Source of the DNA: Nostoc punctiforme PCC 73102
Lineage (GTDB): Bacteria; Cyanobacteriota; Cyanobacteriia; Cyanobacteriales; Nostocaceae
Direction: 5' to 3'
DNA: 32,000 nt
Assembly: GCF_000020025.1 (NCBI RefSeq)
Contig: NC_010631.1
Location: forward strand, 120,001 to 152,000
The notes below the pieces were generated by a model that saw only the letters and a list, made by a program, of their open reading frames with translations, was not told the origin of the DNA and searched no databases. This document shows, in pieces, positions 1,756 through 32,000 of this stretch. The first letter of the stretch is position 1; the number at the start of each line of letters is the position of its first letter. The translations under genes and the position numbers were made by a program.

Positions 1756-3201
1756 TTGAAAAAAATTCAGACTTACTTTGTACAATCAATTTGTCTATGT
1801 ATTCTCGCCATTACCTACTTGCCTAATATCAATATTTTGGCAAATAACAAGGTTTTAGCGCAAACCACAAATGCCGATGAACCATCAATTCTAGAAACCC
1901 AAACTTCCACCTCTAACCGATTACAAAAATTACTCATTGAACAGAATAAACCTGAAGCAGCGTTAGAAATTTCCGAACGCAGCCGTAACCGTGCATTAGT
2001 AGATATATTGAGTGATCGCTCGTCTTCATCAGTTGTTAAACCTTTAAGTACTGAACAAATTAAACAAGTTGCTAAACAACAAAATGCTACACTTGTTCAA
2101 TATTCAATCATTAATGATGAATTCAACATTGAAGGCAAAAAGCAAACTAGAGAATCAGAATTGTATATTTGGGTGATTAAACCTACAGGCGAAATAGCAT
2201 TTCGTAGCGTTGACTTAAAACCACTATGGCAGAAAGAAAATACATCTTTAGCTGATTTAATTACTCACAGTCGTCGGACTCTTGGTGTCAGCAGTAATTA
2301 TCTAAAAGGCATTGTTATTCTTAAGCATCCTGAACAGAAAAATAACCCTAGTCAACAATTACAAAAACTACATCAACTATTAATTGCACCCATCGCCAAC
2401 ATATTACCAAATCAAGCAGATGCACACATTATCTTCATTCCCCAAGGTGAATTATTTCTTGTACCTTTCACAGCATTAAAAGATACTAAAGGCAAATACT
2501 TGATTGAGCAACATACCATTTCCACTGCACCCTCTATTCAAGCATTAAATTTACTTTATCAGCGACAACAGAAAATTCAAGGAGTAGCTAAAGATGTACT
2601 AATTGTGGGTAATCCTACTATGCCTAGCATTTCCCTAAAGCCTGGAGAGTCTCCACAAAAACTATCGCAACTACCAGGTGCAGAACAAGAAGCAAAAGAC
2701 ATTGCAAGTATATTTAACACCCAAGCACTCACAGGTGATGCAGCCACAGAAACCACAGTTGTTCAAAAAATGCCCCAAGCCAAAATTATTCACTTAGCAA
2801 CCCAAGGCGGATGTAATGATTCATTAGAAATAACTTGCGGACTTGCACTTGCACCTTCACAACAAGACGATGGCTGGCTAACATCTGAAGAAATTCTAAA
2901 GTTGAACCTCAAAGCTGATTTAGTTGTGTTGAGTTCAAATGATACAGCACTAGGAAAAATCACTGCCGATGGTGTGATTGGCCTATCTCGTTCTTTCTTC
3001 GCAGCCGCAGTTCCCAGCGTGATTGGTTCTTTATGGAGTGTACCTGATAAAGAGACTGCCTTTTTAATGATAGAGTTTTATCAAAAACTCAGTGAAAACC
3101 CAGATAAAGCTGCTGCCTTGCGTCATGCGATGCTAGCAACTATGAAAAAATACCCAAATCCCAGAGATTGGGCGGCTTTTACCCTGATTGGTGTGTTGTA
3201 G
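1756..3201 (+). CDS. CHAT-domain paralogue without TPR array; predicted catalytically inactive (pseudoprotease), with N-terminal leader
   Basis: 481-aa ORF with a TTG start that is needed to encode the hydrophobic leader MKKIQTYFVQSICLCILAITYL...KVLAQT. It aligns along its length with the CHAT halves of its neighbours. The His motif reads HLATQG (CAA at 2803..2805) and the Cys motif reads LSSNDT (AAT at 2938..2940). Confidence 0.85.
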   Translation: MKKIQTYFVQSICLCILAITYLPNINILANNKVLAQTTNADEPSILETQTSTSNRLQKLLIEQNKPEAALEISERSRNRALVDILSDRSSSSVVKPLSTEQIKQVAKQQNATLVQYSIINDEFNIEGKKQTRESELYIWVIKPTGEIAFRSVDLKPLWQKENTSLADLITHSRRTLGVSSNYLKGIVILKHPEQKNNPSQQLQKLHQLLIAPIANILPNQADAHIIFIPQGELFLVPFTALKDTKGKYLIEQHTISTAPSIQALNLLYQRQQKIQGVAKDVLIVGNPTMPSISLKPGESPQKLSQLPGAEQEAKDIASIFNTQALTGDAATETTVVQKMPQAKIIHLATQGGCNDSLEITCGLALAPSQQDDGWLTSEEILKLNLKADLVVLSSNDTALGKITADGVIGLSRSFFAAAVPSVIGSLWSVPDKETAFLMIEFYQKLSENPDKAAALRHAMLATMKKYPNPRDWAAFTLIGVL

Positions 3202-3223
3202 TTCCAGATTAGGTTGATAAATT

Positions 3224-6200
3224 ATGCGCGATCGCCGCAGGTGGGGCATAGCCCATCGCACAAGCAGAATCATTTTAATCGCTTTGAGTGCTTTTCTTGT
3301 AACAATTGCACCTACATTCCCGCAGAATTTTTCCGGGGTTTTCTTTGCGCCACAGGTGTTAGCGCAAACATCAAATCAGCAGCAAACTGAGGCTGTCACT
3401 GGAAGTTTTATTGATTACTTTGCAGAAGAGAGACAATTTAAAGGGCATGAGGGTAGCGTTAACAGTGCGAGTTTTAGTCCTGACGGTAAGTTAATTGTGA
3501 CTGCTGGTGCTGATAATACTGCTCGTGTTTGGGATTTTGCGGGAAAGCAGGTAGCAGAATTAATTGGGCATCAAGGCAATGTTAAAAGTGCGAATTTTAG
3601 CCCGGATGGTAAGCTGATTGTCACTGCATCTTTTGATGACACTGCCCGTATTTGGGATATTTCAGGCAAACAGCTAGTTGAGCTAAAAGGACACCAAGGT
3701 AATGTTTACAGTGCGAATTTTAGCCCGGATGGAAAGGCGATCACTACAGCAGGTGCAGATAAAACCGTGCGGTTGTGGGATTTATCGGGCAAACAGCTAA
3801 GAGAATTTAAAGCCCATAATGCTAGTGTGTACAGTGCGAAGTTTAGTCCCGATGGCAAGCACATAGTGACAGCATCGGCGGATAAAACAGCGCGTGTATG
3901 GGATACGTCTGGTAAGTTGCTAGCAGAATTAAAGGGACACACGAACACAGTTTGGAGTGCAAATTTTAGTTGTGATGACAAGCGGATAGTTACAGCATCA
4001 GATGATAAAACTGCCCGCATCTGGGATTTATCTGGTAAGCAGTTAGCGGTTTTGCAAGGGCATCAAGATAGTGTTTATAGTGCGAATTTTAGTCCTGATA
4101 GTAAGCAGATTGTGACAGCATCGATTGATTTTGCTACTTTGCTGTGGGAGTCATCAGGGACGTTATTAGGGAAGTTACAACAGCATACTGGTGGGGTTAA
4201 TAGTGCGAACTTTAGCCCAGATGGAAAGTGGATTGTAACTGCCTCATCTGACAGTACCGCTCGTGTTTGGGATTTGTCTGGTAAGATGCTAACTGAACTG
4301 ACTAGCTTTCAACGTGAGGTTGGCAGTGCAAGGTTTAGTTCTGATGGACAACATATCGTTACAAAAAGTGGCAACATCGCCCAAGTGTGGGATTTGTCAA
4401 ACCGACAATTAGTTGAATTCAAAGGCCATCAAGCTGACATTAGAAGTGTTAGATTTAGCCAGAATGGAGAGCTTCTCGTCACTGCATCTGATGACAAAAC
4501 AGCTCGGATATGGGATTTGTCTGGTAAGCAACTAGCTGAACTAAAAGGACATGAGGATTTTATCTATGATGCTAGATTCAGCCCTAATGGAAAAAGTATT
4601 ATTACTGCATCTAATGACAAAACATCTCGGATATGGGATTTGTCTGGTAAGCAACTAGCTGAACTTAAGCATCAGGACTATGTTAGTAGTGCAACTTTTA
4701 GTCCTGATGGACAGAAAATTCTCATTGAATCTGGCAGTTTTACATTAAGTATTTGGGATATTTATGGTAAATTCCTAGCCACAATCAAAGGAGATAAATT
4801 TGATATCAACAGTGGTACTTTTAGTCCTGATGGACAGCGGATTCTGACCACTTCACTTGATGATACTGCCCGCGTTTTTGACATTTACGGAAAGTTATTA
4901 ACCGAATTCAGAGGGCATCAAGAGCAAGTAATAAATGCTAATTATAGCCCTAATGGACAACGAATTGTGACTGCATCTCTAGATGGTACTATTCGTGTAT
5001 GGGACACTTCTGGCAAGCAGCTAACTCTACTCAAAGGGCATAAAGGTAGCGTCAATAGTGCCAGTTTTAGTCCTGATGGAAAAGTTATTGTCAGTGCATA
5101 TGACGACAAAACTATCCTTGTTTGGGATACATCTGGCAAAATACTAGCTCAAATAGGAACACCCAAAAATGAATCTGAAGCTGGGTTTCAAGGAAAGAAA
5201 TTTAGTCCTAATGATTCCGAAATTATCAAGCTCGATAGTTTTAGTCCAGATGGCAAGCGTATAGTCATTGATAACCGCGTGTGGTCATTATCCAATAAGC
5301 TACTTGTTCAAATACCCAAACTAAAGTTTCCTGAAATACCTACAGATGAAAGTAGTCTCAGATTAATCTTTAGTGTGACTAAGGTCAACAGTACCAATTT
5401 TAGTCATGATGGACAGATGATTATCACTTCTAGTAAAGGTATTGTTTATTTATGGAATAGTTCTGGTAAGTTGTTAGCAGAACTCAAAAAACATTGGGGA
5501 CCAATTAGAAGTGCAAGTTTTAGCTCTAATGGACAGCAGATCGTCACTGCATCCTATGACGGTACTGCCCGTATATGGGATACTTCAGGCAAGGAGTTAG
5601 CACTGCTTAATCATAATTCTTTTGTTAACAGTGCTAGCTTTAGTCCTAATGGAAAGCAAATTGTTACTGCATCTGATGACAATACTGCTCGTGTTTGGAA
5701 TAGTTCGGGTAAGTTATTAACGGAACTTAAAGGTCATACACAACCAGTCTTAAGTACAAGTTTTAGCTTAGATGCCAAGCACATTGTTACTGCATCTGCT
5801 GACAAAACTGCCCGTGTTTGGGATTTATCTGGCAAACAGCTAGCAGAACTTCAACATTCTGCGATCGTCAGCAGTGCTAATTTTAGCTCAGATGGAAAAC
5901 AGATTATTACTACATCTCATGACGGTAGTGCTGGTGTATGGGATTTGAATAACAAAACAGCAGTACGTCTGAGTCATCAGCATATTGTCAATGAAGCTAG
6001 ATTTAGCCCGGATGAAAAGCTAGTTATAACGGCATCCAGAGACGGAACTGCTCGTGTATGGGATTTGTCTGGCAAACAAATAGTGTTGTTCAAACATCAA
6101 AGCAGTGTCAATAGTGCTAATTTTAGTCCTGATGGAAAGCAAATTATTACCGCATCTGATGATAAGACTGCTCGTGTTTGGAACTTATCTGGAAAACTGT

Positions 6201-9883: not shown

Positions 9884-12049
9884 ATGAAACGCATTACATC
9901 TGGTATTTTACTCACTGCTTGTCTTTGGTCTGGGTTGGGGATGTTCTCTATCCGACCACAGGTGACAGCCGTTGCTCAAACCCAAGAGGATAGTAACTTA
10001 TTTTACCTTTATAATGGACAACGCATTTCCTTAAACCAGCGACAAGATGCGATCGCTGTTACTTTTAAAAAAGTCTCTACCCGGAACCCTGCGGCTCAAC
10101 CCCTTTATCTGCAACTCCAGGAATCCCTACAGGGTGGCGTTCGGGGAGGTAGTGGGGCAAAAGTTAGTCCTTTGGGCGAGAATTATGCTGTAGTGAATTT
10201 GCCTGCTGGAACCCTAAATGCCTTACAGCAGCGCATTCAGCAGCAACCCTACGTAGAAAATACTTTACCAGTCCTGACTCGTCAGCAAACCAAAGAAGTT
10301 ATTGTTTTACCCAACGAAATTATCGTTAGTTTTGACCCCAAAGTTGACGAAAGTCAGAGACAGACTATTTTACAGCAGAGTAATCTGACAATTGTGCGTC
10401 CCTTGCGCTTCAACCGCGATCGCTATCTGGTCAAATCCAAGGCGGCGGCTGGAACACAAATCCTCAATGTCGCCAACCAACTCAACAATGTCAAAGGCAT
10501 TTCCTCTGCTCAACCTAACTTCATCCAATCAATTACCGACCAAAATCTCGAAACAGCTAGCAAACAAATAGCGAATCTCAAGGGAACGGAAGATTCGGTA
10601 TTGCGAAAACTCTTACCTAGTTCCCAGTCCCCAGACCCTAGTCCCCAGTCTAGTAGAGGGATTTCTCCAAAAACCAGCTTACTCGGATTGGCGTGGCATT
10701 TGAACAGCTTACCCCTGCAACAATGTTTACCCCAACTATCTAGTTGGGAATTATTACAAACCTGCCTGCAAAAGTCTACTGTCGCCACAAAATCTCCTGT
10801 CTCCCGCACAGATATTCGCGTCACCGAAGCTTGGAAACGTAGCAACGGCGGACGCGGTGTAGTTGTCGCAGTCATAGATAGCTTGATTCAATGGGATCAT
10901 CCTGATTTGGCAGGTAGTCTCTATACTGTGAAAGCGGCTGACAAATGTCCAGATGAAGTCCACGGGTGGGATTTTTCTAGTGGTGGTAATAGTCTCGACC
11001 CCTGCGAAATCGGCGATGGCGATACCCGCATCAGTCGTACTGAACTTGCTATTCTCACAGCCAAATTTCAAGATACCTTCAAATTATCGGATGCAGAATT
11101 AATTCGGCAATATTCTGTTGAAGCGCTGGAGATGAAACAAAAATACCCAAATGCGTCTTTTGAGGAAATTGCTCAGATTTTACGTTACGTTTTTCGCACT
11201 TATAAAGTCGGGGCAGAATTTCATGGTACTTGGGTGAGTGGAATAATTGCCGCTAAACCCCAAGATAATCAGGGATTGGTGGGTGTAGCGCCCAATGCTC
11301 AAATTTTACCTGTGCGGTTGTTTGGATTGAATGGAAGTTACAGTCCTTCTGCCTATATTGAAGCCATTGGTTACGCAGCCGATCGCGGTGCTGATATCAT
11401 TAATCTCAGTTTGGGTAGTACCCTACCAACTGATGGAGAAGAAGAAGCGATCGCAGATGTTCTCAAGGCACATCCTAAACTAGTAATTGTGGCTGCTGCT
11501 GGTAACGAAAACTCTAACCGTGTCGCCTATCCCGCCGCCTATCCGGGAGTAGTGGCTGTTGGTGCAACAAATCTTTTAGGTAATCGCGCTCCTTACAGTA
11601 ACTACGGCAAAGGTTTAGCCATAGTTGCACCAGGAGGAGACTTAAATACCCCAGGAATGCTGGGCGGAATTCCCACCACAGGCGGTACTTGGCTGGATGC
11701 TTTTTGGCAAGGAATGTCCGCCCCTGAATCTCGTTGGTCTACGGTGCTGGATGCGCGGGGCAAATATTGGTGGGTGGAAGGCACATCCTTTGCATCACCA
11801 GCCGTCGCGGGGGTAGTGGCTTTGATGAAAGGAGAAAATAAAGAAATTAGCAGACAAAGTTTGGTGAGTATTTTAAAATCCACAGCTAGTTATCAAGGGC
11901 TAGCTATCTCTGATGATGATGCTAGGAGATATCGCTCACAGCGACGCAAAGGTGAAGTTTCATCTGCGGTTAAAGGTCAGCCTTACTTTTTTGGCAAAGG
12001 ACTGGTGAATGCTAATGCCGCAGTCAAGGCGGTGAAAGAAAAGCGATAA
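9884..12049 (+). CDS. S8 (subtilisin-like) serine peptidase with N-terminal leader and propeptide-like region
   Basis: Catalytic triad motifs are VVAVIDS (Asp codon 10877..10879), HGTWVSG (His codon 11222..11224) and GTSFASPAVAG (Ser codon 11786..11788). The hydrophobic N-terminus ends in VAQT. Confidence 0.9.
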   Translation: MKRITSGILLTACLWSGLGMFSIRPQVTAVAQTQEDSNLFYLYNGQRISLNQRQDAIAVTFKKVSTRNPAAQPLYLQLQESLQGGVRGGSGAKVSPLGENYAVVNLPAGTLNALQQRIQQQPYVENTLPVLTRQQTKEVIVLPNEIIVSFDPKVDESQRQTILQQSNLTIVRPLRFNRDRYLVKSKAAAGTQILNVANQLNNVKGISSAQPNFIQSITDQNLETASKQIANLKGTEDSVLRKLLPSSQSPDPSPQSSRGISPKTSLLGLAWHLNSLPLQQCLPQLSSWELLQTCLQKSTVATKSPVSRTDIRVTEAWKRSNGGRGVVVAVIDSLIQWDHPDLAGSLYTVKAADKCPDEVHGWDFSSGGNSLDPCEIGDGDTRISRTELAILTAKFQDTFKLSDAELIRQYSVEALEMKQKYPNASFEEIAQILRYVFRTYKVGAEFHGTWVSGIIAAKPQDNQGLVGVAPNAQILPVRLFGLNGSYSPSAYIEAIGYAADRGADIINLSLGSTLPTDGEEEAIADVLKAHPKLVIVAAAGNENSNRVAYPAAYPGVVAVGATNLLGNRAPYSNYGKGLAIVAPGGDLNTPGMLGGIPTTGGTWLDAFWQGMSAPESRWSTVLDARGKYWWVEGTSFASPAVAGVVALMKGENKEISRQSLVSILKSTASYQGLAISDDDARRYRSQRRKGEVSSAVKGQPYFFGKGLVNANAAVKAVKEKR

Positions 12050-12367: not shown

Positions 12368-15300
12368 ATGCGCGATCGCAAACTTAGTTTAACCACATTG
12401 ATCACTCTCATCTTGAGTGTTTCACAACCCATCGCAAATTTGCCTCCACTATTCCAAGCGTCGCAAGTATTAGCGCAAACGCCAGCGAATCGTAAAGCAG
12501 AAGCAGACCGATTGTTACAGCAAGGTATTGAGCAGCTTCAAAGCAGCCAATTTGAAGCCGCATTAGAATCTTGGCAAAAAGCACTGATGATTTATCGAGA
12601 CATTCAAGATCGTCACGGAGAAGCATCAGCCCTAATTAATTTAGGAACTATTTACCTTTACTTTAATAACAATACTAAAGCAATTGAATACTTTGAACAA
12701 AGTTTAGCCATTGCTAAAGAAAACAAATATTACAACGCTCAAATTGCGGCTTTGGGCAGTTTAGGAGAAATTTATAATTCATTGGGAGACTACAAAAAAA
12801 CAATTGAGTACCATCTTTCTCGCTTAGAGGTTACAAGAAAAATAAAAAATCGATTAGCAGAGAAAGATACGTTACAAGATTTAGCAGAAGCTTACCTAGC
12901 AATGCAAAATTACCCTCAGGCAATAGAAGCCTTAGAAAATTATTTAGTCATTTCACAAAAACTTAAAGATCGTGAAGGAGAAAAGTATGCTCTAGGCTCT
13001 TTAGGAATTTATTATTACTCATCAGGAAACCATGCTAAAGCGATTGAGTATTATCGACAACCTTTAGCAATGGAGTTTTATCAACAAAAATTAATCACAG
13101 CACGAAAAAATAAAAATCGGCAGGTAGAAGCAAGTGCAATTGGGATTATTGCTATTGTTTATGATGCTTTAGGAGATAACACAAAAGCAATTGAATACTA
13201 CGAGGAGCGAATCAAAATTGCGCGTGAACTTAAAGATAAAGAAAACGAAGGACATTATCTTGCTAATCTTGGTTATGCTTACTTAAAAGTCAATCATTAC
13301 AGTAAAGCAGTTGAATCTGCACAAAAAGGTTTAGAAATTGCCAGGGAACTCAAAAACTTCCAAAAACAGGCAGTATGTCTGAGGGTTTTAGGTGAATCAT
13401 ACTCTGGGCTGAATGACAATAAGCAAGCCAACTATTATTATCAGCAATTATTGGCTCTATCACAAGATAAAAAAGATATACCTGATGAAATAGAAATATT
13501 AAGTTCCTTAAGTATTACTTATCGTGAACTTGGATATTATACACAAGCAATAGAATTTGCACAAAGACATTTGTTAATTGCACGAAAACTAAACGACAAA
13601 ATACAGCAGGCAGAAGCACTCACAAATTTAGGAGCAGTTTATAATGATTTAGGCAATTATATCCAAGCCATAGAATATCATAAAGAAAGTTTAAAAATTG
13701 CACAAGAAATTAAATCAATTACTCATGAAGCTAATTCTTTGGGAGAATTAGGGATTGCTTATTTTGATATTAATGATTATGTTAAAGCACTTGATTACTA
13801 TCAACAATTTTTAGCTATAGCCCAAAAACTCAAAGATAAACAAAATGAAGGAATTGCTTTAAGTGAATTAGGTCTTGTTTATGACCAAATAGACGACCAT
13901 AAAAAAGCTATTAATTATTATCAGCTATCTTTAGCTATTGCACGAGAACTTAAAGAAACTCTCCTAGAGGCAAATACTTTAATGAATCTAGGTAGAGCCT
14001 ATATATCTTTGGGAAACTATACAAAAGCAATTGAGTATACACAACAAGGTCTATTTTTAAGCAAAAAGATTAATTATCCTTTAGGAAAAGGATTTGGATC
14101 TACAAATTTAGGACTAGCTTTGTATAGAACTGGTAAACTAGCAGAAGCTGAAAAAGTTTTGGTTGATGGAATTCAAGTTTGGGAATCTTTGCGCTCAGGA
14201 CTTGGGAATAACGATATTCATAAAGTTTCAATTTTTGATAAGCAAGCAAGCATCTACCCTATACTGCAACAAGTTTTAATTGCTCAAAATAAAAATGATG
14301 AGGCTCTAGAAATTGCTGAAAGGGGGCGTTCTAGAGCGTTGTTAGACTTATTAAACTCACGCTTATCTAACAACAATTCCACTCAGTCATTCCAACTCAA
14401 TTTCCAGCAACCTACACTATCACTGCTACAACAAATTGCCAAACAGCAAAAAGCGACACTTATTGAATACTCTATTATTGCTGATAATTTTAAAATTCAG
14501 GGTAAACAAGTAACTTATGAATCAGAACTCTATATCTGGGTAATCAAACCCGCAGGTGAAGTTACCTTCCGCAAAGCTGACCTGAAACCCCTGTGGCAAA
14601 AAGAAAACTCAACCCTTGGCAATCTTGTTATCACCAGTCGTAACTCTATCGGTGCAACAAGTACACCTTTTCGCGGTGCTGTTGATGTAGTTGGTAAACC
14701 CAATGCACCCAAAGCCAAAAATAATTTAAAGCGTCTACACGAATTATTAATCAACCCCATCGCTGACTTATTACCCAAAAATTCTAACGATCACGTTATC
14801 TTCATTCCCCAAAGTAGCCTATTCCTCGTCCCCTTCGCCGCATTACAAGACGCAGACGGTAAATACCTAATTGAAAAACACACTATTCTCACATCACCAT
14901 CAATTCAAGTTTTAGATTTAACCCACAAACAGAAACAACGGACAGGCACAAAACCGATAGAAGGAAAAGATACGCTGATTGTTGGTAATCCAATGATGCC
15001 TTTTCTAGCACCAAAAATCGGCGAAACTCCGCAACAATTAATTTCTTTACCTGGTGCAGAACTTGAAGCAAATGCAATTAGCAAATTACTCAAAACCGAA
15101 CCTCTGATCGGCAACAAAGCAACAGAAGCAACTATAGTCAAGCGTTTACCCCAAGCGCGATTTATTCATTTAGCAACACACGGCATATTTGATGATATCC
15201 AAGGATTAAATAGTGGAATTGCTTTGACTCCATCGGGTAAAGAGGATGGATTATTAACAGCCTCGGAAATCCTCGATCTGAAGCTAAATGCCGAATTAGT

Positions 15301-15697: not shown

Positions 15698-17989
15698 ATG
15701 TCTAACATCAAACGCCGTCATTTTCTCCAATTTTCTGCTTCCACTCTCGCAATGTTAGGCTTGAGCCAGTTCGACATCATGCAACAAGCCAACAGCGTAG
15801 GTAAAGTCCTCGCTCAAAGTACAGGCCGCAAACTAGCGCTACTAGTGGGTATTAATGATTATCCTGCAAGCAATGGTTTAGATCCTCTCAAAGGTTGTGA
15901 GAATGATGTCAAATTGCAGGAATACTTACTAATTCACCGCTTTGGCTTCAAACAAGAGGATATTCGCATTTTGCTTAACCAACAAGCCACCCGTCAAGGC
16001 ATCCTCACAGCTTTTGAAAACCATCTAATTGCTCAAGCCAAGCGTGGGGATGTGGTATTATTCCACTACTCTGGACACGGTTCCCAGGTACAAGACCCCG
16101 ATCGCGATTCACCGGATGGACTCAACAGCACGCTTGTTCCTATAGATAGCCCTTTACCAACAGGATTTCCAGCCTTCGGCGGTGCAGTAAAAGATATCAT
16201 GGGACATACGCTATTTTTACTCATGTCTGCGTTAAAAACAGATAACGTCACCTTTGTGCTTGACAGCTGTTTTTCTGGTGGTGGTACGCGGGGAAATCTG
16301 CGGGTGCGATCGCGTTCTGGCGGTGAAAAATTGCAACCTAGTCAAGAAGAATTAGACTATCAGCGTCAATGGCTAAATAAATTGGGGCTTTCACAACAAG
16401 AATTCATTCAAAAACGCCGTCAAAACGTTGCTAAAGGAGTCGTTATCACCAGCGCCAAACGCGATCAATACGCCGCCGATGTTCCTTTTTCGGGTTTCCA
16501 TGCAGGGGCGTTTACCTACTCGCTAACTCAGTATCTTTGGCAGCAAACTGGCAATGAATCTGTCAACAGAGCGATCGCTAATATTGGTCGCAGTACGAAA
16601 GAATTAGCTAGCGAAAATGGTAACGATCAAGACCCAGAATTTGAGTCGAACCTCAGCGAAGAAAATGCCAACACACCTATCTATTTCATCCCTGTCCAGG
16701 CTATCCCAGCTGAGGCTGTAGTCACGCAAGTAACAGAGAACCAAGCACAGTTATGGCTGGGTGGAATAGATTCGCAAAGCTTAGAAGCTTTCAACAGTAA
16801 CTCTGTATTCTCAATAGTGGATGGTCTGGGTAATGAAATCGGACAGGTGCAACTACAATCTCGTCAAGGATTAGTCGGCAGAGGTACGCTGAAATACACA
16901 ACCTCCAAGGGAAAATTACACCCAGGAAATTTATTGCAAGAACGCATCCGCATCATTCCTAGAAATGCAACTTTAAAAATTGGTATTGATGAATCTTTAG
17001 ACAACAAAACTGCCCAGCAGGCAATACAAGCGATGAAAGCACTCAAGCGCGTCGAACCCAAATCTTTAACAAAAGAAGAATTACAATATATCTTTGGGCA
17101 GATGACAAAGACCAAACATCAAGAGTTGCAGAAAAAAGGAGTATCCAAGCTGCCAGTAGTGGGTAGTTTTGGTTTATTTTTACCAAGTCAAGACCAAATT
17201 ATTCCTGCGTCTTTTGGTGCAGCTAGCGAACCCATAACTGAAGCAGTAAAGCGTTTACAACCAAAATTCAAGTCGCTGTTAGCTGCGAGAGTGATCAAAC
17301 AGATTCTGGGAAATACAAATTCATCACGCCTCAACGTCACAGTTTCTATGAATATTGCTGGTAGCAATGAGCTTTTGGCTGAAACTTTCCCGATTCGCGG
17401 TGTAGCTAAAAAACCTCAACAGCCAAATTCCTCAACACCAGTTTCGTCTATTAAGTTTTCTGATGCTGGGTTACGTCAACTACCTGTGGACACCCAGATT
17501 GCTTTCCAAATTAAAAATAATGAGTCTCAACCACTTTACGTCAGTATTTTAGTGATTGATGCCGAAGGCGAAATGACAATTATTTTTCCTAATAAATGGT
17601 CAGACTCAGAAAATGCTGCTTTGGTAGAGGCAAAACAAACACAGTTAATCCCTCAAGCTGATGATGAATTTACACTTACCATAGTTACGCCCTTGGGAGT
17701 TTCAGAAGCATTAATCATTGCCAGTACCACCCCGCTAAAAACTGCTCTCCAAGCATTACAAACAATTGCTAGTAGGTCAACAGACACAAAAAGTCGAAAT
17801 GTTCCTCTCCCTGTTACTAATGAACTGTTAGATGTCACCAATAATTTACTAGATGACTTAGATGCAGGTACTCGTAGCGGCAATAGCGTCAATAACATAC
17901 AATTACCATCGAGCGATCGCGGTGTTGATACTACAAAATTAGCTGCAATGGCGATCGCTTTTGAGGTAATTGCATCATCCAGCAGCTAA
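15698..17989 (+). CDS. Orthocaspase / peptidase C14-like protease with twin-arginine (Tat) signal and a C-terminal DUF4384-like domain
   Basis: The N-terminus KRRHFLQFSASTLAMLGL matches the Tat pattern RR.FL. The caspase fold is indicated by LALLVGINDY, HYSGHG (His codon 16076..16078) and LDSCFSGG (Cys codon 16268..16270). The C-terminal block ...IAFQIKNNESQPLYVSILVIDAEGEMTIIFPN resembles DUF4384. Confidence 0.88.
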   Translation: MSNIKRRHFLQFSASTLAMLGLSQFDIMQQANSVGKVLAQSTGRKLALLVGINDYPASNGLDPLKGCENDVKLQEYLLIHRFGFKQEDIRILLNQQATRQGILTAFENHLIAQAKRGDVVLFHYSGHGSQVQDPDRDSPDGLNSTLVPIDSPLPTGFPAFGGAVKDIMGHTLFLLMSALKTDNVTFVLDSCFSGGGTRGNLRVRSRSGGEKLQPSQEELDYQRQWLNKLGLSQQEFIQKRRQNVAKGVVITSAKRDQYAADVPFSGFHAGAFTYSLTQYLWQQTGNESVNRAIANIGRSTKELASENGNDQDPEFESNLSEENANTPIYFIPVQAIPAEAVVTQVTENQAQLWLGGIDSQSLEAFNSNSVFSIVDGLGNEIGQVQLQSRQGLVGRGTLKYTTSKGKLHPGNLLQERIRIIPRNATLKIGIDESLDNKTAQQAIQAMKALKRVEPKSLTKEELQYIFGQMTKTKHQELQKKGVSKLPVVGSFGLFLPSQDQIIPASFGAASEPITEAVKRLQPKFKSLLAARVIKQILGNTNSSRLNVTVSMNIAGSNELLAETFPIRGVAKKPQQPNSSTPVSSIKFSDAGLRQLPVDTQIAFQIKNNESQPLYVSILVIDAEGEMTIIFPNKWSDSENAALVEAKQTQLIPQADDEFTLTIVTPLGVSEALIIASTTPLKTALQALQTIASRSTDTKSRNVPLPVTNELLDVTNNLLDDLDAGTRSGNSVNNIQLPSSDRGVDTTKLAAMAIAFEVIASSSS

Positions 17990-19550: not shown

Positions 19551-19578
19551 AATAAATAATAACTCCTTAAAATCCCAG

Positions 19579-20475: not shown

Positions 20476-20570
20476 GGCAGAAAGCAAAAGTTTTGAGTTA
20501 GCCATTAACAAATAATCAAAGGTAAATAAAGCTTCATTTGTTGAAGTTAAAAAATTAAAAAGAGAAAATT

Positions 20571-24152: not shown

Positions 24153-25558
24153 TCAGTTAAAGCTAAAAAGCTGATTATTAATGTGAAATTTCGGAGCTTG
24201 TACTTGTTTTCCAGTACTTCTGTGTTTAGGCTTTTTAGAAGAAAACTTTGATACAGGTTTTTTCACAACCCTGGGGTTAGTACGGTGAACTCGTTTCGGT
24301 AACAACGTATCCAGATCTCTACGGTTAACCAATCGAAAAAAGGGGGAATTCTTCTGGTGGTAAATGTTGAAATTTAGGAATAGCACGACAATGACTCGTA
24401 ATGTTCCTGTAAAACTTAGACGCAACGGAGACAGAAGCATTAGTTGCTGCTTGAAATATTAACACTCAAACTGACCAATGTCCCAACAACCAACCATACA
24501 CTTCTTGTACAACTTCTCGTAGTTTTTGGGAACGGACATGGGTTTTTCGACCCAAAAGATGGATTTTCAATTCATCACTGGTATTTTCTACTTCCCAACG
24601 TTGATGATATTCCTCAGCTAACAACTCTGCCGGGAATTTTTCAATGTCTAACAGGCTAGTAATCAAGCGATATATCACTTGTTTTTCTGGGTTATCAGGA
24701 TGCTCAATTATGTACTCGATAACTCTTACTGATATTGGCTGACAATCCTTTTTTCGTAACTTTCCAGATGGGTAAATCGATGACAGATAAGAACCATCTG
24801 GCAACGATTTTTCTGTAAAAAATTTAACATTGGCAGGAATTCTCCCTAAATAGTCACAACCCTTAGATACTGTTGCGTGTACCATTGCATACGAATGCAA
24901 TCCCCTATCCCACATCAACAACATTCCTGATGTTACCGAGCGTAATAATTTTAATGCCCGCACTCGTTCTCCGATGCGGTATGGACACTCTTATTGCATC
25001 AAATATGATGTGTGTTCCTGCTTCTACCAATATGACTAATCTGACTTTGGGAAAAGCTGCTTGTGTGCCTGGACGACTACCAGGACGACCAAAAACTCTC
25101 GCATTTTCATGACTATCTGGAACATCAAAACAAGTACCGTCAATCACCACAATTCTCAGCCCATTTAGAAATGCTCCTATCGTTTCACCAGTCGCCATTG
25201 GTTGTACTAACTGGTGAAATAATTGGCTCATCACTCCTGCTCCCAATCTTGCCGAGCTTGAGTAATTGCTGACTTACAAGGTACTCGCCAGTATTTACCT
25301 ACCTTCACCCATCCCTCAGAAAGACCATCAATCAAGTTTTTAAGTATATCCCACATTGAGTCTTTTGACCATAGACTCATTGCAATTACCAGACTTACCA
25401 CTAATTGCGCTGGTAGCGGGAAGCGAAGCTATGCCGCAGGCTTATCGCTTGCGCTCCTCTTCAGTTTGGGTATTAGTGATCGCTTCTTCGATTGCAGTTG
25501 CTGGAATCGCCATCTCGATTGCTTTAAGCACATCACCACTTCGTATCTCAGGAGACAT
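24153..25558 (-). pseudogene. IS4-family DDE transposase broken by frameshifts and in-frame stops
   Basis: Pieces lie in different frames. They are MSPEIRSGD...EERKR*, LPAQLVVSLVIAMSLW..., RLGAGVMSQ..VIDGTCFDVPDS.., MRALKLL..LLMWDRG..YHQRWEVENTSDELK (the Y-2-R-3-E-6-K signature), HWSV*(TGA)VLIFQAA.. and SPLRLSFTG..NPRVVKK. Confidence 0.85.
25409..25450. repeat. Short GC-rich dispersed repeat, copy inside the IS transposase gene
   Basis: gctggtagcgggaagcgaagctatgccgcaggcttatcgctt resembles 28391..28433. It supplies stop codons in the transposase reading frames. Confidence 0.6.
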
Positions 25559-25777: not shown

Positions 25778-26284
25778 ATGAAAGGTTTGAAACTAGTAGC
25801 AGCTATTTTAGTATTTGGAACATTGACTTTTACACCCAAAGCTGAAGCGAAAAGCTTGTTCAACACTCAACAAGTCATAGCACAAGTTCCTGACTCGCAA
25901 ACTGAAAATCCGAAGGATACCGAAACATACTTTAAACGGGGTTTTAAGCGGATAGAATCGAAAGATTATCGAGGAGCAATTGAAGATTTTAACCAAATCC
26001 TGAAGATTGAACCTAACAATGCTTATGCCTACGTTGGTAGAGGATTAGGTAATTTTTGTCTGGATGAATATCAAGCAGCAAAGACAGATTTTGACAAAGC
26101 TATAGAAATTACTCCCGATATTCCCTATGCCTATTATTTCCGAGGTTTGACAAACTTTGCTTTAAAAGACAAACCAGCAGCGATCGCTGATTTACAGAAA
26201 TCATTCACGCTGTTTAAACAAGAAGGGAATCAGGAATTCGCCCAAAAAGCCACCGACGCACTTCAGAAGATACAAGAGAGTTAA
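25778..26284 (+). CDS. Small secreted TPR-repeat protein
   Basis: The ATG at 25778 lies 7 nt after AGGAGA (25765..25770). The signal peptide is MKGLKLVAAILVFGTLTFTPKAEA, followed by QQVIAQV. Three TPR units of the type AY..RG......Y..A..DF..A are present. The track's GTG start at 25727 is less likely. Confidence 0.85.
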   Translation: MKGLKLVAAILVFGTLTFTPKAEAKSLFNTQQVIAQVPDSQTENPKDTETYFKRGFKRIESKDYRGAIEDFNQILKIEPNNAYAYVGRGLGNFCLDEYQAAKTDFDKAIEITPDIPYAYYFRGLTNFALKDKPAAIADLQKSFTLFKQEGNQEFAQKATDALQKIQES

Positions 26285-26408: not shown

Positions 26409-26442
26409 ACACCACTGAGTCAGTCTGCTGGAGTTTTTGCTA

Positions 26443-27464
26443 ATGGGCTACCGTCTGAAGTACCTCATCCTTGCTACTGTAGGGCTTTCCTTTGCCCCCT
26501 TGTCTCCTCTTTCTCCCGTCTCTTTGTCTCCCTTGGTGGTGCAGGCGCAAACGACACAACAGCCTAGTCCTGAAGAAACAAACAGGGAGAAGGAACAACC
26601 CTCAACAATATTGGCTTTGTTTACAATAATCAAGGACAGTATGCCAAAGCTTTGGTAGCTTATCAGCAAGCTTTAGCTATTCGCAAACAAATCAATCAAA
26701 AAGCATTGGTAGGAGAAAGCCTCAATAACATTGGCTCTGTTTACGAAAATTTGGGACAGTACGATCAAGCATTGAAGTTTTATCAGCAAGCTTTAACTAT
26801 TCTCCAACAAATTGGCAGCAAGGTAGGTGAAGGAAAAACTCTGAACAATATTGGCTTTGTTTACAATAATCAAGGACAGTATGCCAAAGCTTTAAATTAC
26901 TATGTACAAGCTTTAACTATTCTTCAAAAAATTGGTGACAAAGCAGGTGGAGGTAAAACTCTCGATAATATCGGTGTGGTTTATGACAACCAGAGAGATT
27001 ATGCCAAAGCATTCGGATTTCATCAGCAAGCTTTAGCCATTTTCAAACAAATTGGTGATACAGCAGGTGAAGGCAAAACTCTTAATAATATTGGTGGGGT
27101 TTATTATAATCAGAAAGAGTATGCCAAAGCTTTGGAATTTTATCAGGAAGCTTTAGTTATTGTCAAACAAGTCGGTGATAAAGCGTCGGAAGGAACATTT
27201 CTCAATAATATTGGTTCTGCTTACGATAAATTAGGACAATATGAAAATGCTGAAAAAACGCTATTTACTGCAATTGAGATTTGGGAGTCTTTGCGAAAGA
27301 ACGAATTAACTGATGCTCAAAAAATTTCACTCTTTGAAATACAAGCCGAAACCTACCGTTTTCTGCAAAGGAGTCTGATTGCCCAGAATAAAATTAATTC
27401 TGCCTTAGAAGTGAGCGATCGCCTCATTCCCCAAACCAAACATCGTAGGCGCAGCCTGTCGTAG
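26443..27464 (+). pseudogene. Frameshifted, 3'-truncated paralogue of the TPR-CHAT gene at 1..1707 (leader + TPR only, CHAT lost)
   Basis: The ATG at 26443 follows GGAG. The leader MGYRLKYLILATVGLSFA...VVQAQT is in frame 1. The TPR frame opens only after the TGA at 26571 (track ORF 26652..27464). Nucleotide homology to 1..534 stops at the HIP1 site 27415..27422, inside ...ALEVSDR, where the paralogue continues into CHAT. Confidence 0.65.
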
Positions 27465-27476
27465 ACATTGCTGTTT

Positions 27477-28064
27477 CTAAGCACTAACAACCGTAGGAAA
27501 AATCCGGCTCAAGTCTAATAAGACATCTTCAAATCCAGGAATTGCCACTGACTGATGGGGCAAAGATATCTGCTTGCTGAGATAATTATATTCACCTTGA
27601 GCAGTTTGATAAGGTTGGCTGTAACGCTCAAGTTGGCGAAAATTTAAGTTGACAATCCAATAATTAGAAATTCCGGCTTCTGCGTAGACTTCTAACTTTG
27701 TTGTTTGGTCGTAATCGAGGGTTGAATCGGAAATTTCAATCACTAAAAAAATATCTTCAGGATAGGGATGATGGGGAAGATAGTCAGTCTCATTTCCTCG
27801 TGCGATCGCCACATCTGGTTCAGGTTCACTATCTGATGGTAGTATGATTGGCTCTTGACAACGCACAACAGCGCCATCGCCCAGCAATCGATCCAGTTGT
27901 CTACAAAGCCGAGTTGTGCAAAATGTATGAGGTGTGCCTTTGGCTACCATCTGAATGAGTTCTCCGCGAATCAATTCAATGCGATCATTCTCCTTTAGAA
28001 ATTCCAGTTCAATCAGTCGATGATATTCATCAATAGTAAATCGCTTTGGTGTGACAACGTTCAT
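27477..28064 (-). CDS. Uma2-family (DUF820) restriction-endonuclease-fold protein
   Basis: The 195-aa ORF MNVVTPKRFTIDEYHRLIE...ELIRGELI.M...EPEPDVAI...LVIEISDST...D...K...YA..GI..YWIV is typical of the family that is expanded in cyanobacteria. Confidence 0.88.
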   Translation of the reverse strand: MNVVTPKRFTIDEYHRLIELEFLKENDRIELIRGELIQMVAKGTPHTFCTTRLCRQLDRLLGDGAVVRCQEPIILPSDSEPEPDVAIARGNETDYLPHHPYPEDIFLVIEISDSTLDYDQTTKLEVYAEAGISNYWIVNLNFRQLERYSQPYQTAQGEYNYLSKQISLPHQSVAIPGFEDVLLDLSRIFPTVVSA

Positions 28065-28299: not shown

Positions 28300-28390
28300 A
28301 TTGTGATCGCTAAATTTTCTTATAAAACATGTGAGACATCTTGATTTAGAATACACTCACAATAATAAACCGCCCTTGATCACAAACCAA

Positions 28391-28433
28391 GCTGTTGGCG
28401 GTAAGCGTAGCCATGCCGTCAGGCTTATCGCTT
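28391..28433. repeat. Short GC-rich dispersed repeat, second copy
   Basis: gctgttggcggtaagcgtagccatgccgtcaggcttatcgctt is similar to 25409..25450. Confidence 0.6.
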
Positions 28434-28459
28434 TTGTTCACTCTTGCACAGCGGCTCGA

Positions 28460-28490
28460 ATTTGCATATCCTTCAGCAGGTGAGAGATAT
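28460..28490 (+). promoter_or_regulatory. Shared promoter-like motif, copy 3 (upstream of TPR-CHAT 28537)
   Basis: atttgcatatcct-tcagcaggt-gagagatat. It ends 46 nt before the ATG at 28537. Confidence 0.55.
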
Positions 28491-28536
28491 ATTATATCTC
28501 CTTAAACTCGCTGCATTACTGCTGACTCTAAAATCT

Positions 28537-31500
28537 ATGGGCGATCGCAAACTTAGTTTAACCGTATTGATCACTCTCATCTTGACTGTTTCACAACCCA
28601 TCGCCAATTTGCCTCCACTATTCCAAGCGCCGCAGGTATTGGCGCAAACGCCAGCAGAACGGAAAGTAGAAGCAGACCGATTGTCGCAGCAAGGTCTTGA
28701 GCAGTTTAAAATTAGCCAATTTGAAGCCGCGTTACAGTCTTGGCAACAAGCACTTATTATTTATCGAGAAATCAAAGACCGTAAAGGAGAGGGAAAAACT
28801 CTAGGCCGTCTGGGAGTTATTTACGACTACCGGGGAGACTATACCAAAGCCATTCAGTACCAGCAGCAGAGTTTGGCGATCGCCAAGGAAACTAAAGACC
28901 GTTTAGGGGAAGGAAAAGCTCTGGTCAATCTGGGAAATGTTTACCATTCCCTGGGAGACTACGCTAAAGCCATTGAGTATCACTCCTCAAGTTTTACGAT
29001 CGCTCGTGAAATCAATGACCGTTCAATTGAGGGTGCTGCTCTGGGCAATCTGGGACTTGCTTACGATGCAAAAGGAGACTACGCCAAAGCCATTGAGTAC
29101 CACTCTTTAAGTTTGGCGATCGCTCGTGAAATCAAAGACCGTAAAGGAGAGGGAGAATCTCTGGGCAATTTGGGAATTGCTTACGATGCCCTGGGAGATT
29201 ACGCTAAAGCCATTGAGTACCAGCAGCAGAGATTGGCGATCGCTCGTGAAATCAAAGACCGTAAAGGGGAGGGAGAATCTCTGGGAAATCTGGGAAGTGC
29301 TTACTATTCGCTGGGAGACTACGCCAAAGCGATTAAGTACCAGCAGCAGAGATTGGCGATCGCTCGTGAAATTAAAGACCGCCGAGCACAGAAACAATCT
29401 CTGGGCAATCTAGGAGTTGCTTACAATGCTCTGGGAGACTACGCCAAAGCGATTAAGTACCAGGAGCAGAGTTTGGCGATCGCTCGTGAAATCAAAGATC
29501 GTAATGGCGAGGGTAATGCTCTGGACAATCTGGGACTTGCTTACTATTCGCTGGGAGACTACGCCAAAGCCATTGAATACTACTCCTCAAGTTTGGCAAT
29601 TGCACGAGAAATCAAAGACCGTAATGGCGAGGGTACTGTTCTGGGGAATCTGGGACTTGCTTACTTTTTGTTGGGAGACGACCTGAAGGCGATTGAGTAC
29701 CAGGAGCAGAGTTTGGCAATTGCACGAGAAATCAAAGACCGTAATGGTGAGAGTCAATCTCTGGGCAATCTAGGACTTGCTTACGATGATCTGGGAGACT
29801 ACGCCAAAGCGATTGAGTACTACCAGCAAAGTTTAGCGATCGCTCGTGAAATCAAAAACCGTTTAGGCGAGGGACAATCTCTGGGCAATCTAGGAAATGT
29901 TTACTATTCGCTGGGAGACTACGCCAAAGCGATTGAGTACTACCAGCAAAGATTGGCGCTCGCCCGCCAAATCAAAAACCGTTTAGGCGAGGGGAATGGT
30001 CTGAGCAATCTAGGAAATGCTTACGGTTCGCTGGGAGACTACGCCAAAGCGATTGAGTACCAGCAGCAAAGTTTAGCGATCGCACGAGAAATCAAAGACC
30101 GTTTAGGTGAGGGGAATGTTCTGGGGAATCTAGGATTTACTTTAAACAAATCTGGCAATCTTGCAGAAGCAGAAAAAAACCTCCGGGCTGGGATAGAGGT
30201 CTGGGAATCTGTCAGGAGACAGTTGGGTAAAAATGATAGCTACAAAGTCTCAATTTTTGAACGACAATCTCGCACTTACCGCATACTACAAAGAGTCCTA
30301 ATTGCTCAGAATAAAACCAAAGAAGCGTTAGAAATTTCTGAACGGGGACGTTCTAGGGCATTTGTGGAGTTATTAACTTCACGGTTGTCTAGCGAAAGTG
30401 CAGGTCAAACTGTAGAACGTCCTGTTGATAAACCGACAATATCGCTGTTGCAACAAATCGCCAAACAACAAAATGCCACCCTCGTTGAATATTCAACTAT
30501 TGGTGATGAATTCAAGATTCAAGGTAAACAAGAACAAAAAGAATCAGAACTCTACATTTGGGTAATCAAACCCACAGGTGAAGTTACCTTCCGCTCTTCT
30601 GACCTCAAACCCCTGTGGCAAAAAGAAAATACAACTCTTGACAAGCTTGTTACTACCAGTCGTAACTTCATTGGTGCAACAAGTACACCTTTTCGCGGTG
30701 GTATTATCCCCAGGGAAAATCCTAATAAACCCAAAGCCAAACAAAAATTTCAGCAACTCCATAAACTGCTGATTGAACCTATCGCTGACTTGCTTCCAAA
30801 ACAAGAAACTGAAAAAGTTATCTTCATTCCCCAAAGCAGCCTATTCCTCGTTCCCTTCGCCGCATTACAAGACGCAGACGGCAAATACCTGATTGAAAAA
30901 CACACCATCCTCACATCTCCATCAATTCAGGTTTTAGATTTAACCCACAAACAGAAACAACGGCTTGGAACAAAACCCATAGAAGGAAAAGATACGCTGA
31001 TTGTAGGTAATCCCACAATGCCTTTTCTCGCCCCAAAAATCGGCGATACTCCGCAACAATTAAAACCTTTACTTGGCGCAGAACTTGAAGCAGTTGCAAT
31101 TAGCAAGTTACTCAAAACCGAACCTCTCATCGGCAAGAAAGCCACAGAAGAAACTATAGTCAAGCGTTTACCCGAAGCGCGATTTGTTCATTTAGCAACA
31201 CATGGTTTATTTGATGATATCCAAGGATTAAATAGTGGCATTGCTTTGACTCCATCGGGTAAAGATGATGGTTTATTAACAGCCTCGGAAATCCTCGATC
31301 TGAAGCTAAATGCCGAATTAGTCGTTTTAAGCGCTTGCGACACCGGACGCGGACGCATTTCTGGGGATGGGGTAATTGGTTTATCTCGTTCGTTAATTAG
31401 TGCTGGTGTACCCAGTGTCTTAGTATCGCTGTGGTCGATTCCAGATGCGCCCACAGCCCTATTAATGACGGAATTTTATCAAAATCTGCAAAAAGGCTCC

Positions 31501-31602
31501 GACAAAGCGCAAGCACTGCGACAGGCAATGCTGAAAACCATTCAGAAATATCCTCAACCCAAATATTGGGCAGCTTTTACTCTCATTGGCGAAGCTGAGT
31601 AA
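28537..31602 (+). CDS. TPR-repeat + CHAT protease with N-terminal leader (paralogue of 12368..15580)
   Basis: I place the start at the ATG at 28537 (MGDRKLSLTVLITLILTV...QVLAQT) by homology with the starts at 12368 and 31682, not at the track's TTG at 28444. The TPR array is extremely regular. The CHAT motifs are HLATHG and LSACDTG. Confidence 0.92.
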   Translation: MGDRKLSLTVLITLILTVSQPIANLPPLFQAPQVLAQTPAERKVEADRLSQQGLEQFKISQFEAALQSWQQALIIYREIKDRKGEGKTLGRLGVIYDYRGDYTKAIQYQQQSLAIAKETKDRLGEGKALVNLGNVYHSLGDYAKAIEYHSSSFTIAREINDRSIEGAALGNLGLAYDAKGDYAKAIEYHSLSLAIAREIKDRKGEGESLGNLGIAYDALGDYAKAIEYQQQRLAIAREIKDRKGEGESLGNLGSAYYSLGDYAKAIKYQQQRLAIAREIKDRRAQKQSLGNLGVAYNALGDYAKAIKYQEQSLAIAREIKDRNGEGNALDNLGLAYYSLGDYAKAIEYYSSSLAIAREIKDRNGEGTVLGNLGLAYFLLGDDLKAIEYQEQSLAIAREIKDRNGESQSLGNLGLAYDDLGDYAKAIEYYQQSLAIAREIKNRLGEGQSLGNLGNVYYSLGDYAKAIEYYQQRLALARQIKNRLGEGNGLSNLGNAYGSLGDYAKAIEYQQQSLAIAREIKDRLGEGNVLGNLGFTLNKSGNLAEAEKNLRAGIEVWESVRRQLGKNDSYKVSIFERQSRTYRILQRVLIAQNKTKEALEISERGRSRAFVELLTSRLSSESAGQTVERPVDKPTISLLQQIAKQQNATLVEYSTIGDEFKIQGKQEQKESELYIWVIKPTGEVTFRSSDLKPLWQKENTTLDKLVTTSRNFIGATSTPFRGGIIPRENPNKPKAKQKFQQLHKLLIEPIADLLPKQETEKVIFIPQSSLFLVPFAALQDADGKYLIEKHTILTSPSIQVLDLTHKQKQRLGTKPIEGKDTLIVGNPTMPFLAPKIGDTPQQLKPLLGAELEAVAISKLLKTEPLIGKKATEETIVKRLPEARFVHLATHGLFDDIQGLNSGIALTPSGKDDGLLTASEILDLKLNAELVVLSACDTGRGRISGDGVIGLSRSLISAGVPSVLVSLWSIPDAPTALLMTEFYQNLQKGSDKAQALRQAMLKTIQKYPQPKYWAAFTLIGEAE
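28765..30084 (+). repeat. Eleven tandem, exactly 120-bp (40-aa) near-identical TPR units, each carrying or nearly carrying a HIP1 site
   Basis: The unit is REIKDR.GEG..LGNLG.AY..LGDYAKAIEY.QQSLAIA. Unit 1 starts at 28765 and unit 12 (degenerate) starts at 30085, which equals 28765 + 11 x 120. Confidence 0.9.
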
Positions 31603-31681
31603 GTTTTTAAAGTTATCTACTCAACCCAAAAGCGCTTTATATCTTTTTAAACTCCCTACTTTACTCGTGGCTCTCAAATCT

Positions 31682-32000
31682 ATGCGCGATCGCAAACTTA
31701 GTTTAACCGCATTGATCACTCTCATCTTGACTGTTTCACTGCCGATTACAAATTTGCCTCCACTATTCCAAGCGTCGCAAGTATTAGCGCAAACACCAGC
31801 AGACCGCAAAGCTGAAGCTGACCGACTTTTAAATCAAGGTTTCGAGCAGCTTCAAACGAGTCAATTTACAGCAGCATTAGAGTCTGGGCAACAGGCACTA
31901 ATTATCTATCGAGAAATCAAAGACCGTCAAGGTGAGGGGCGTACTTTAATTTTTCAAGGTGCTGCTCATCTTAGTCTGGGAGACAAAGCTCGTGCGATCA
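31682..32000 (+). CDS. Third tandem TPR(-CHAT) paralogue, 3' end beyond the window (not in the ORF track)
   Basis: Starts ATGCGCGATCGCAAACTTAGTTTAACC. The translation is MRDRKLSLTALITLILTVSLPITNLPPLFQASQVLAQTPADRKAEADRLLNQG...YREIKDRQGEG. The frame is open to the last base. Confidence 0.85.
   Translation, partial: MRDRKLSLTALITLILTVSLPITNLPPLFQASQVLAQTPADRKAEADRLLNQGFEQLQTSQFTAALESGQQALIIYREIKDRQGEGRTLIFQGAAHLSLGDKARAI

Follow-up and report, generated by a model that had tools for sequence, protein, structure and literature searches.

This analysis concerns a leader motif that recurs at the N-termini of nine predicted proteins in a 32,000-nucleotide stretch of Nostoc punctiforme PCC 73102 DNA (assembly GCF_000020025.1, contig NC_010631.1, positions 120,001 to 152,000), referred to below as the window. 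Annotated through Pfam domains, the plus strand of the window carries a TPR-CHAT gene cut at its 5' end (4-1707), a CHAT protein of 481 residues (1756-3201), a WD40-CHAT protein of 2172 residues (3224-9742), an S8 subtilase of 721 residues (9884-12049), a TPR-CHAT protein of 1070 residues (12368-15580) and an orthocaspase of 763 residues that combines C14 with DUF4384 (15698-17989). These are followed by a trio of PBP-like, weakly vWA-like and Tubulin_2 proteins (18342-23897), a small TPR protein of 168 residues (25778-26284), a frameshifted TPR remnant (26437-27464), a TPR-CHAT protein of 1021 residues (28537-31602) and a TPR protein cut by the window end (31682 onward). Close relatives of the window proteins are found in Nostoc, Calothrix, Tolypothrix and other Nostocales, and plasmid2 of Nostoc sp. 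HK-01 shows synteny with the order CHAT, WD40-CHAT, S8, TPR-CHAT and C14.

A preliminary description of this DNA had reported a common leader on nine different proteins. All nine leaders translate as quoted there, from starts at 1756 (TTG), 3224, 9884, 12368, 15698, 25778, 26437/26443, 28537 and 31682. Their independence, however, was overstated: the leaders at 12368, 28537 and 31682 belong to recent paralogues with 89-91% nucleotide identity, another is a piece of a pseudogene, and the protein at 31682 is cut by the window end. With a slash marking the predicted cleavage site, the predicted signal peptide of the 481-residue CHAT protein is 35 residues long (1756..1860) and ends in ..NNKVLA/QTT; that of the WD40-CHAT protein, which begins MRDRRRW.., has 47 residues (3224..3364) and ends in ..APQVLA/QTS; and that of the S8 subtilase has 31 residues (9884..9976) and ends in ..PQVTAVA/QTQ. 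Predicted signal peptides of 36 residues are found on the 1070-residue TPR-CHAT protein (MRDRK.., 12368..12475, ending ..ASQVLA/QTP), the 1021-residue TPR-CHAT protein (MGDRK.., 28537..28644, ..APQVLA/QTP) and the window-end TPR protein (MRDRK.., 31682..31789, ..ASQVLA/QTP). The orthocaspase has a predicted twin-arginine translocation (Tat) signal peptide of 39 residues with KRRHFLQ (15698..15814), ending in ..GKVLA/QST, 4 residues ahead of strand beta1. In the small TPR protein (25778..25882) a canonical signal peptide ending AEA/K (nucleotide 25849) is followed 11 residues on by ..QQVIA/QVP; this AEA ahead of the motif had been pointed out before and is indeed there. The remaining leader, of a degraded TPR(-CHAT) gene (26437..26547, ATG at 26443), ends in ..PLVVQA/QTT. 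Its open reading frame runs from 26437 to a stop at 26658 in a different frame from the TPR open reading frame at 26652-27464, and is a pseudogene remnant. The peptide ..PLFQASQVLAQTPANRK.. spans the predicted Ala/Gln site.

In all nine leaders the residue at -3 is small or aliphatic and that at -1 small (Ala, Gly or Ser), and +1 is never Pro but in each case Gln. A pattern that restricts -3 and -1 to small or aliphatic residues and leaves -2 freer is the signature of type I signal peptidase. Neither a lipobox (Cys at +1) nor a prepilin site (G/F-T-L-x-E) is present in any of the nine. Basic tips are found (MKK, MRDRRR..R, MKR, MRDRK, MKGLK, MGYRLK and MGDRK), followed by hydrophobic cores of 12-15 residues, or 20 Gly/Ser-rich residues in the S8 protein. 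A typical h-region spans roughly 7-15 residues and is shorter than a membrane anchor; the hydrophobic segments of the PBP-like and vWA-like proteins of the window, which lack the motif, are 19-20 residues long and anchor-like. The tubulin-like protein lacks the motif too, so that the earlier statement that all three (the first described there as PstS-like) are without it was borne out. The twin-arginine motif KRRHFLQF occurs in the orthocaspase leader only, the Tat consensus being S/T-R-R-x-F-L-K ahead of a weakly hydrophobic core. This leader passes the TIGR01409 Tat model (17.1 bits against a cut-off of 16.7), in line with its earlier assignment as a Tat signal, and scores 17.6 with Pfam TAT_signal, under the cut-off of 22.7. 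Apart from the Tat model on the caspase, NCBIfam and Pfam sorting-signal models gave no match to the nine leaders. Sec and Tat leaders are both processed by signal peptidase I, and the motif is present on Sec-type and Tat leaders alike.

The real proteins of the window add up to 9,415 residues, among which V[LI]AQ is present 7 times, each time within residues 33-45 and not once at another place in frame, against a composition-based expectation of 0.49 and a maximum of 4 in 2,000 shuffles. The S8 (AVAQT), fragment (VQAQT) and small TPR (VIAQV) leaders fit only the looser [VA]-x-A-Q. Because the codons of the motif vary among families (GTT TTA GCG, GTC CTC GCT, GTC ATA GCA), it is a signal at the level of the protein and not a DNA repeat; a DNA-repeat or gene-conversion origin of the cross-family motif is rejected for the same difference. 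At the other end of the leader, four genes (those at 3224, 12368, 28537 and 31682) begin ATG(C/G)GCGATCGC, as the preliminary description had noted, and thus have a HIP1 octamer at codons 2-4, where it encodes R-D-R or G-D-R and so supplies the basic tip. The octamer is common to these four starts because the CHAT-family leaders are related. In the window as a whole it is present in 34 copies against 0.19 expected, which marks the DNA as cyanobacterial. Within the gene at 28537-31602 it lies at multiples of 120 nucleotides (28876, 29116, 29236, 29356, 29476, 29836 and 30076, together spanning 28876-30083), a period of one per 40-residue TPR unit, and would there encode Ala-Ile-Ala (..LAIAREI..) in the presumed frame.

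Conservation of the junction was followed in two sets of relatives. For the orthocaspase, 114 orthologues (P0016-P0135) were aligned on the first beta strand. Position -4 is Gln in 72 and Lys in 42, -3 is Val in 82 and Ala in 31, -2 is Leu in 109, -1 is Ala in 111 and +1 is Gln in 109, then Asn or Ser at +2 and Thr at +3, and the caspase fold begins 4 residues later. The RR pair is invariant, and its distance to the site is 34 residues in 108 of the 114. The entire Tat leader (residues 1-45) is kept across Nostocales, including the SQLDIMQQG stretch between core and site, and judging from this alignment it is more conserved than signal peptides normally are. The other set comprises 44 TPR(-CHAT) N-termini from Nostocales, Leptolyngbyaceae, Coleofasciculus, Symploca and others, collected with the first 160 residues of the TPR-CHAT protein in a search that matched short proteins only. 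Here the leader ends with Val (27), Ala (8), Leu (3) or Thr (3) at -3, Ala (39), Thr (4) or Ser (1) at -1, Gln (37), Lys (4) or Glu (3) at +1 and mostly Thr (32) or Ser (6) at +2; position -2 is variable (Leu 26, Val 5, Ser 4, Gln 4 and others). The end of the leader sits 6-7 residues ahead of the first TPR helix (RKAEADRL), and the distance from the core to the motif ranges from 4 to 25 residues, so spacing is not a property of the motif. P0137, P0155 and P0161 have canonical signal peptides of 28-29 residues ending in VAVA/QTS or GVQA/KT, and in the HK-01 orthologue of the 1756 protein only 7 residues separate core and site (..VTYLSNIKVLA/QTI). The S8 leader is unchanged in its HK-01 plasmid orthologue, and orthologues of the small TPR protein read VVA/QVP (P0011), LITQAP (P0014) and VTA/QVP (the HK-01 copy) at the motif. 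A profile of the nine leaders gave 7 matches in a word-indexed database and 12 in an exhaustive search among 1.84 billion representatives; nearly all of them were short TPR(-CHAT) N-terminal fragments from Nostocales, which makes these matches no cross-family census.

AlphaFold2 models place the motif at a structural boundary. In the model of the N-terminal part of the TPR-CHAT protein at 12368, residues 1-36 have a predicted local distance difference test (pLDDT) score of 50-59, with the core as a helix at 8-19 and a weak second helix at 27-35, and pLDDT is about 98 from residue 39, in the first TPR helix. In the orthocaspase, residues 1-41 lie below 50, with a weak second helix at 24-40, and beta1 occupies residues 45-51. 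The jump in pLDDT and the position of the first strand thus put the Ala/Gln junction of both models at the border of the fold. The spacers of most window leaders hold a second small hydrophobic patch (NLPPLF, GVFFAP, INIL, FDIM). Less hydrophobic and less helical H-regions have been linked by spatial proteomics to periplasm or outer-membrane and not thylakoid-lumen targeting (PMC12341915); the Thr/Ser-rich, Pro-interrupted cores of the window resemble the former type, although we take this as only a hint.

The same junction ends predicted signal peptides of unrelated proteins in Nostoc PCC 7120, for which we used the PrediSi predictions in Table S5 of PMC8557916. Alr0975, a phytochelatin-synthase-like protein, has a predicted signal peptide of 24 residues, MIVMKLFIPVTVIGLCLSSSQVLA/QTL, and Alr0722 one of 27 residues, ..LLLIAQQVLA/QSW, while Alr2042 (..HFSRVLA/QNP), All0495 (..FQPVIA/QTL) and the M16 protease All1940 (..TPEIALA/QTP) are predicted to end in the same way (all PMC8557916). 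These five proteins are unrelated, and their predicted leaders, which end in the motif string, are of canonical length. Crystallised constructs of Alr0975 start exactly at that Gln (6TH5 and 6TJL; 6THO after a short tag), a start that reflects construct design and does not prove a cut there. The signal-peptide logo of Nostoc PCC 7120 has Val at -3 and Ala at -1 (PMC8557916), and Gln is at +1 in 23-31% of the predicted signal peptidase I substrates of Nostoc, Anabaena, Calothrix, Tolypothrix and Nodularia (supplement of PMC5837995); the logo and this share together make V-x-A/Q the modal cleavage junction of the lineage. A genome-wide preference for Leu at -2 was considered and rejected: by a rough count the PCC 7120 table has at least 13 VLAQ, 7 VSAQ, 6 VTAQ, 5 VQAQ, 4 VEAQ and 3 VAAQ, so that Leu is not favoured beyond its general abundance. 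Literature searches turned up neither experimentally determined N-termini nor reports of pyroglutamate on exported proteins of cyanobacteria.

We consider it likely that the nine leaders are signal peptides, eight of the Sec type and that of the orthocaspase of the Tat type, and that the motif is the type I signal peptidase site of Nostoc-type cyanobacteria. This reading takes in the position of the motif, its pattern of conservation, its presence on unrelated exported proteins and its place at the folded-domain boundary. Each leader consists of a basic tip, a core of the length given above and an unusually long polar, Pro-containing c-region. It would take the protein through the cytoplasmic membrane into the periplasm or envelope by way of Sec, or of Tat in the case of the caspase. 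LepB would cleave between Ala and Gln in [QK]-V-[LI]-A-Q-[TS], with Val or Ala at -3 and Ala at -1, leaving a mature N-terminus of Gln-Thr/Ser directly ahead of the first folded element, and the new N-terminal Gln might be cyclised. Because the leaders look like ordinary export signals with a common cleavage site, the nine proteins are probably exported, and as far as the sequences tell no new sorting system is involved. Of what the preliminary description proposed, an export signal and a common maturation site are supported, whereas a special or extended sorting signal is not: the -3/-1 rule is obeyed, the same string ends unrelated PCC 7120 signal peptides, and the spacing varies from 4 to 25 residues.

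Several observations weigh against this reading. The motif does lie further from the core than usual, as claimed earlier: in most window leaders the c-region is estimated at about 10-18 residues, against a textbook 3-7 (definition quoted in PMC12341915), a range within which P0137, P0155, the HK-01 orthologue of the 1756 protein and the PCC 7120 examples fall. In the orthocaspase family Leu at -2 and Gln at +1 are near-invariant. Signal peptidase needs neither, and c-regions as long as those of the window reportedly impair cleavage in E. coli. The small TPR protein has its canonical AEA/K 11 residues upstream of the motif, and related proteins have Thr at -1 (SQLITQT, RQLITQAP). All exported proteins of the window have Gln at +1, for which the baseline is about 25%; if 4-5 leader lineages are independent, such uniformity would have a probability of 0.25^4 to 0.25^5 (about 0.004 to 0.001), in what is a post hoc comparison. 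For the nine proteins no experimental N-terminus was found in the literature. The long spacer, the near-invariant Leu(-2) and Gln(+1) of the caspase family and the uniform Gln(+1) are thus left unaccounted for by an ordinary signal peptidase site. They would be accommodated if the long bipartite leader with its near-invariant L-A/Q were a specialised variant that filamentous cyanobacteria use for clusters of envelope proteases (CHAT, orthocaspase, S8), to which we give a small chance. Were it so, the cluster might follow a Q-rule of its own, with pyroglutamate shielding the exported proteins from one another, or the long spacer might delay or condition cleavage and keep the proteases tethered to the membrane until release.

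Other readings of the leaders place the cut elsewhere or dispense with it. Signal peptidase I could cut nearer the core, at candidate sites such as AEA/K in the small TPR protein, ILA/NN in the 1756 protein or SVS/QP in the TPR-CHAT proteins, so that the Pro-rich stretch and QVLAQT would form an N-terminal tail or pro-segment that is conserved for another reason or later removed. The canonical AEA of the small TPR protein fits this, as does a CHAT protein at 9527 of locus L007 with VSA/Y followed by SQLITQT; several leaders have alternative -3/-1 sites right at the core end, and at so great a distance from the core a cut at the motif would be expected to be inefficient. Such sites are not conserved among paralogues, however, with -1 being Ser, Leu, Ala or Phe in TPR-CHAT relatives, and the one in the WD40-CHAT leader has Pro at +1, while the Ala/Gln junction is conserved throughout the TPR(-CHAT) set and is used by the short canonical leaders of P0137, P0155 and P0161. 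In the WD40-CHAT, TPR-CHAT and fragment leaders, moreover, the motif is the sole -3/-1-compliant site between the immediate core end and the mature domain. We think cleavage near the core unlikely, and consider it just as unlikely that the leaders stay uncleaved as type II signal anchors, with QVLAQT as a conserved juxtamembrane element that might dock a partner such as the CHASE2 receptor of syntenic clusters. Their length and bipartite hydrophobicity and the weak second helices of the AlphaFold2 models would suit an anchor, and close TPR-CHAT paralogues retain the leader to the same degree as the CHAT domain (86-89% against 87-92% identity). In more distant paralogues, though, leader identity falls faster (33-56% against 61-67%), a stable anchor would call for more than a core of 12-15 residues, the true anchors in the window measuring 19-20, and the motif is the same as the predicted cleavage sites of ordinary soluble exported proteins.

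The preliminary description had also raised the possibility of a dedicated maturation or sorting site, cut by a protease of the locus itself (S8, CHAT or orthocaspase) in a zymogen network. The motif is on all exported proteins of a protease-rich locus, the order of its genes is matched by a syntenic cluster on a Nostoc plasmid, and Gln(+1) is enriched in the cluster over its baseline of about 25%; even so, we judge the network very unlikely. P1 is Ala in all nine leaders whereas orthocaspases cut after Arg or Lys (PMC6426788), the same motif is on PCC 7120 proteins unlinked to such loci, the leaders match no curated sorting-signal model, and the candidate processing proteases bear the motif themselves, so that the proposal finds no support. 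That the similarity reflects paralogy and chance only, with no functional site, appears extremely improbable. It draws on the fact that CHAT/TPR paralogues account for six of the nine leaders, with three of these about 90% identical in DNA, and on the TPR-CHAT relative P0009, which carries the WD40-CHAT type of leader and so shows a leader swap between architectures. It fails to explain why the non-homologous orthocaspase family keeps [VA]-L-A-Q across 114 orthologues, why all 7 V[LI]AQ fall at the leader end and why codons differ between families. Descent does have its part: the similarity among CHAT-family leaders is largely due to common ancestry and leader exchange between paralogues, and the caspase, S8 and small TPR proteins would have only the generic site in common.

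If the leaders are ordinary signal peptides, the main consequence is a call on localisation. CHAT, WD40-CHAT and TPR-CHAT proteins, an S8 subtilase and a catalytically intact orthocaspase would be exported to the envelope in Nostocales, although these protease families are usually viewed as cytoplasmic effectors of conflict or programmed cell death. The plasmid-associated CHAT/orthocaspase/S8 cluster is accordingly predicted to act in the cell envelope, a location that constrains hypotheses on the substrates of its proteases. The motif itself, as the common signal peptidase site of the lineage, raises no new question, and the long spacer and uniform Gln(+1) are modest oddities.

Some further features of the cluster and its surroundings were noted. 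The HK-01 copy is plasmid-borne (L006, AP018320.1 237185-277295; L008, 187185-237184), and HK-01 has two more TPR-CHAT/orthocaspase gene pairs with leader ends identical in type. In HK-01 and in Calothrix sp. PCC 7507 (L004) the cluster comes with a CHASE2 protein and with a small secreted protein that has a PRKGGSRP...ISPD motif and that we take to be DUF928-like; in Calothrix, DUF1822 is also beside it. In other Nostoc plasmid stretches the same families dominate and there are few further exported proteins, while a genome contig scan with the S8 protein returned Nostoc sp. WHI only, plus one irrelevant match. In close TPR-CHAT paralogues the repeat array changes fast, with an identity of only 41-54% over its first 160 residues, while the leader and the CHAT domain on either side are conserved (12368-15580 against 28537-31602; L006 19944-23264; L007 7004-9469). 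P0009 (residues ~285-305) and P0015 (residues ~160-185) have an internal copy of the leader end and mature start (..SPLRTSQALAQTTAYRKAEAERL and ..EALQFAQTQNDPRKAEADKL), which looks like the fusion of tandem paralogues. The trio at 18342-23897 consists of a membrane-anchored PBP_like_2 protein with a Cys-rich N-terminal segment, a transmembrane protein with a weak vWA match only (VWA_CoxE, E=0.019, DMSNS motif) and a Tubulin_2 protein of 1108 residues with a zinc ribbon at its C-terminal end; it matches no PADLOC model and, within the part of the syntenic HK-01 region that was retrieved, is missing 3' of the caspase gene. An identity of the locus as an anti-phage defence system was rejected, PADLOC models giving generic caspase, TPR and subtilase matches only. 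The region between the trio and the 1021-residue TPR-CHAT gene looks decayed, with a DDE transposase broken into overlapping open reading frames (24153-25246, minus strand), the TPR(-CHAT) gene whose leader is out of frame and which has no CHAT domain (26437-27464, plus strand) and, on the opposite strand, a Uma2-family endonuclease gene (27477-28064, minus strand).

Set against known systems, the leaders come closest to the Sec signal peptides of Nostoc and Anabaena that are cleaved by signal peptidase I, such as those of Alr0975, Alr0722 and All1940, with which they have in common a basic n-region, a core, Val or Ala at -3, Ala at -1 and Gln at +1, up to literal matches of the string (SQVLA/QT, QQVLA/QS, IALA/QTP). 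They differ from these in the c-region, which measures 5-8 residues there and 10-18 residues with a second hydrophobic patch in most window leaders. The Q-rule of Bacteroidetes, by which Gln at +1 of signal peptidase I substrates is converted to pyroglutamate by glutaminyl cyclase (PMC5837995, PMC10653852), offers a parallel in that all exported proteins of the locus would begin with Gln after the predicted cleavage. In Bacteroidetes, however, about 71% of substrates have Gln at +1, whereas the cyanobacterial share of about 23-31% is no organism-wide majority. Finally, the orthocaspase leader resembles the Tat signal peptides of cyanobacterial YS pseudo-orthocaspases (Klemencic et al. 2019, PMC6426788), which likewise have a twin-arginine motif and an A-x-A-type site upstream of p20. 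In contrast to those proteins, the window orthocaspase has DUF4384 and keeps the catalytic His/Cys dyad intact (YSGHG, DSCFSG), and because the dyad is retained it is presumably an active enzyme and not a YS pseudo-variant.

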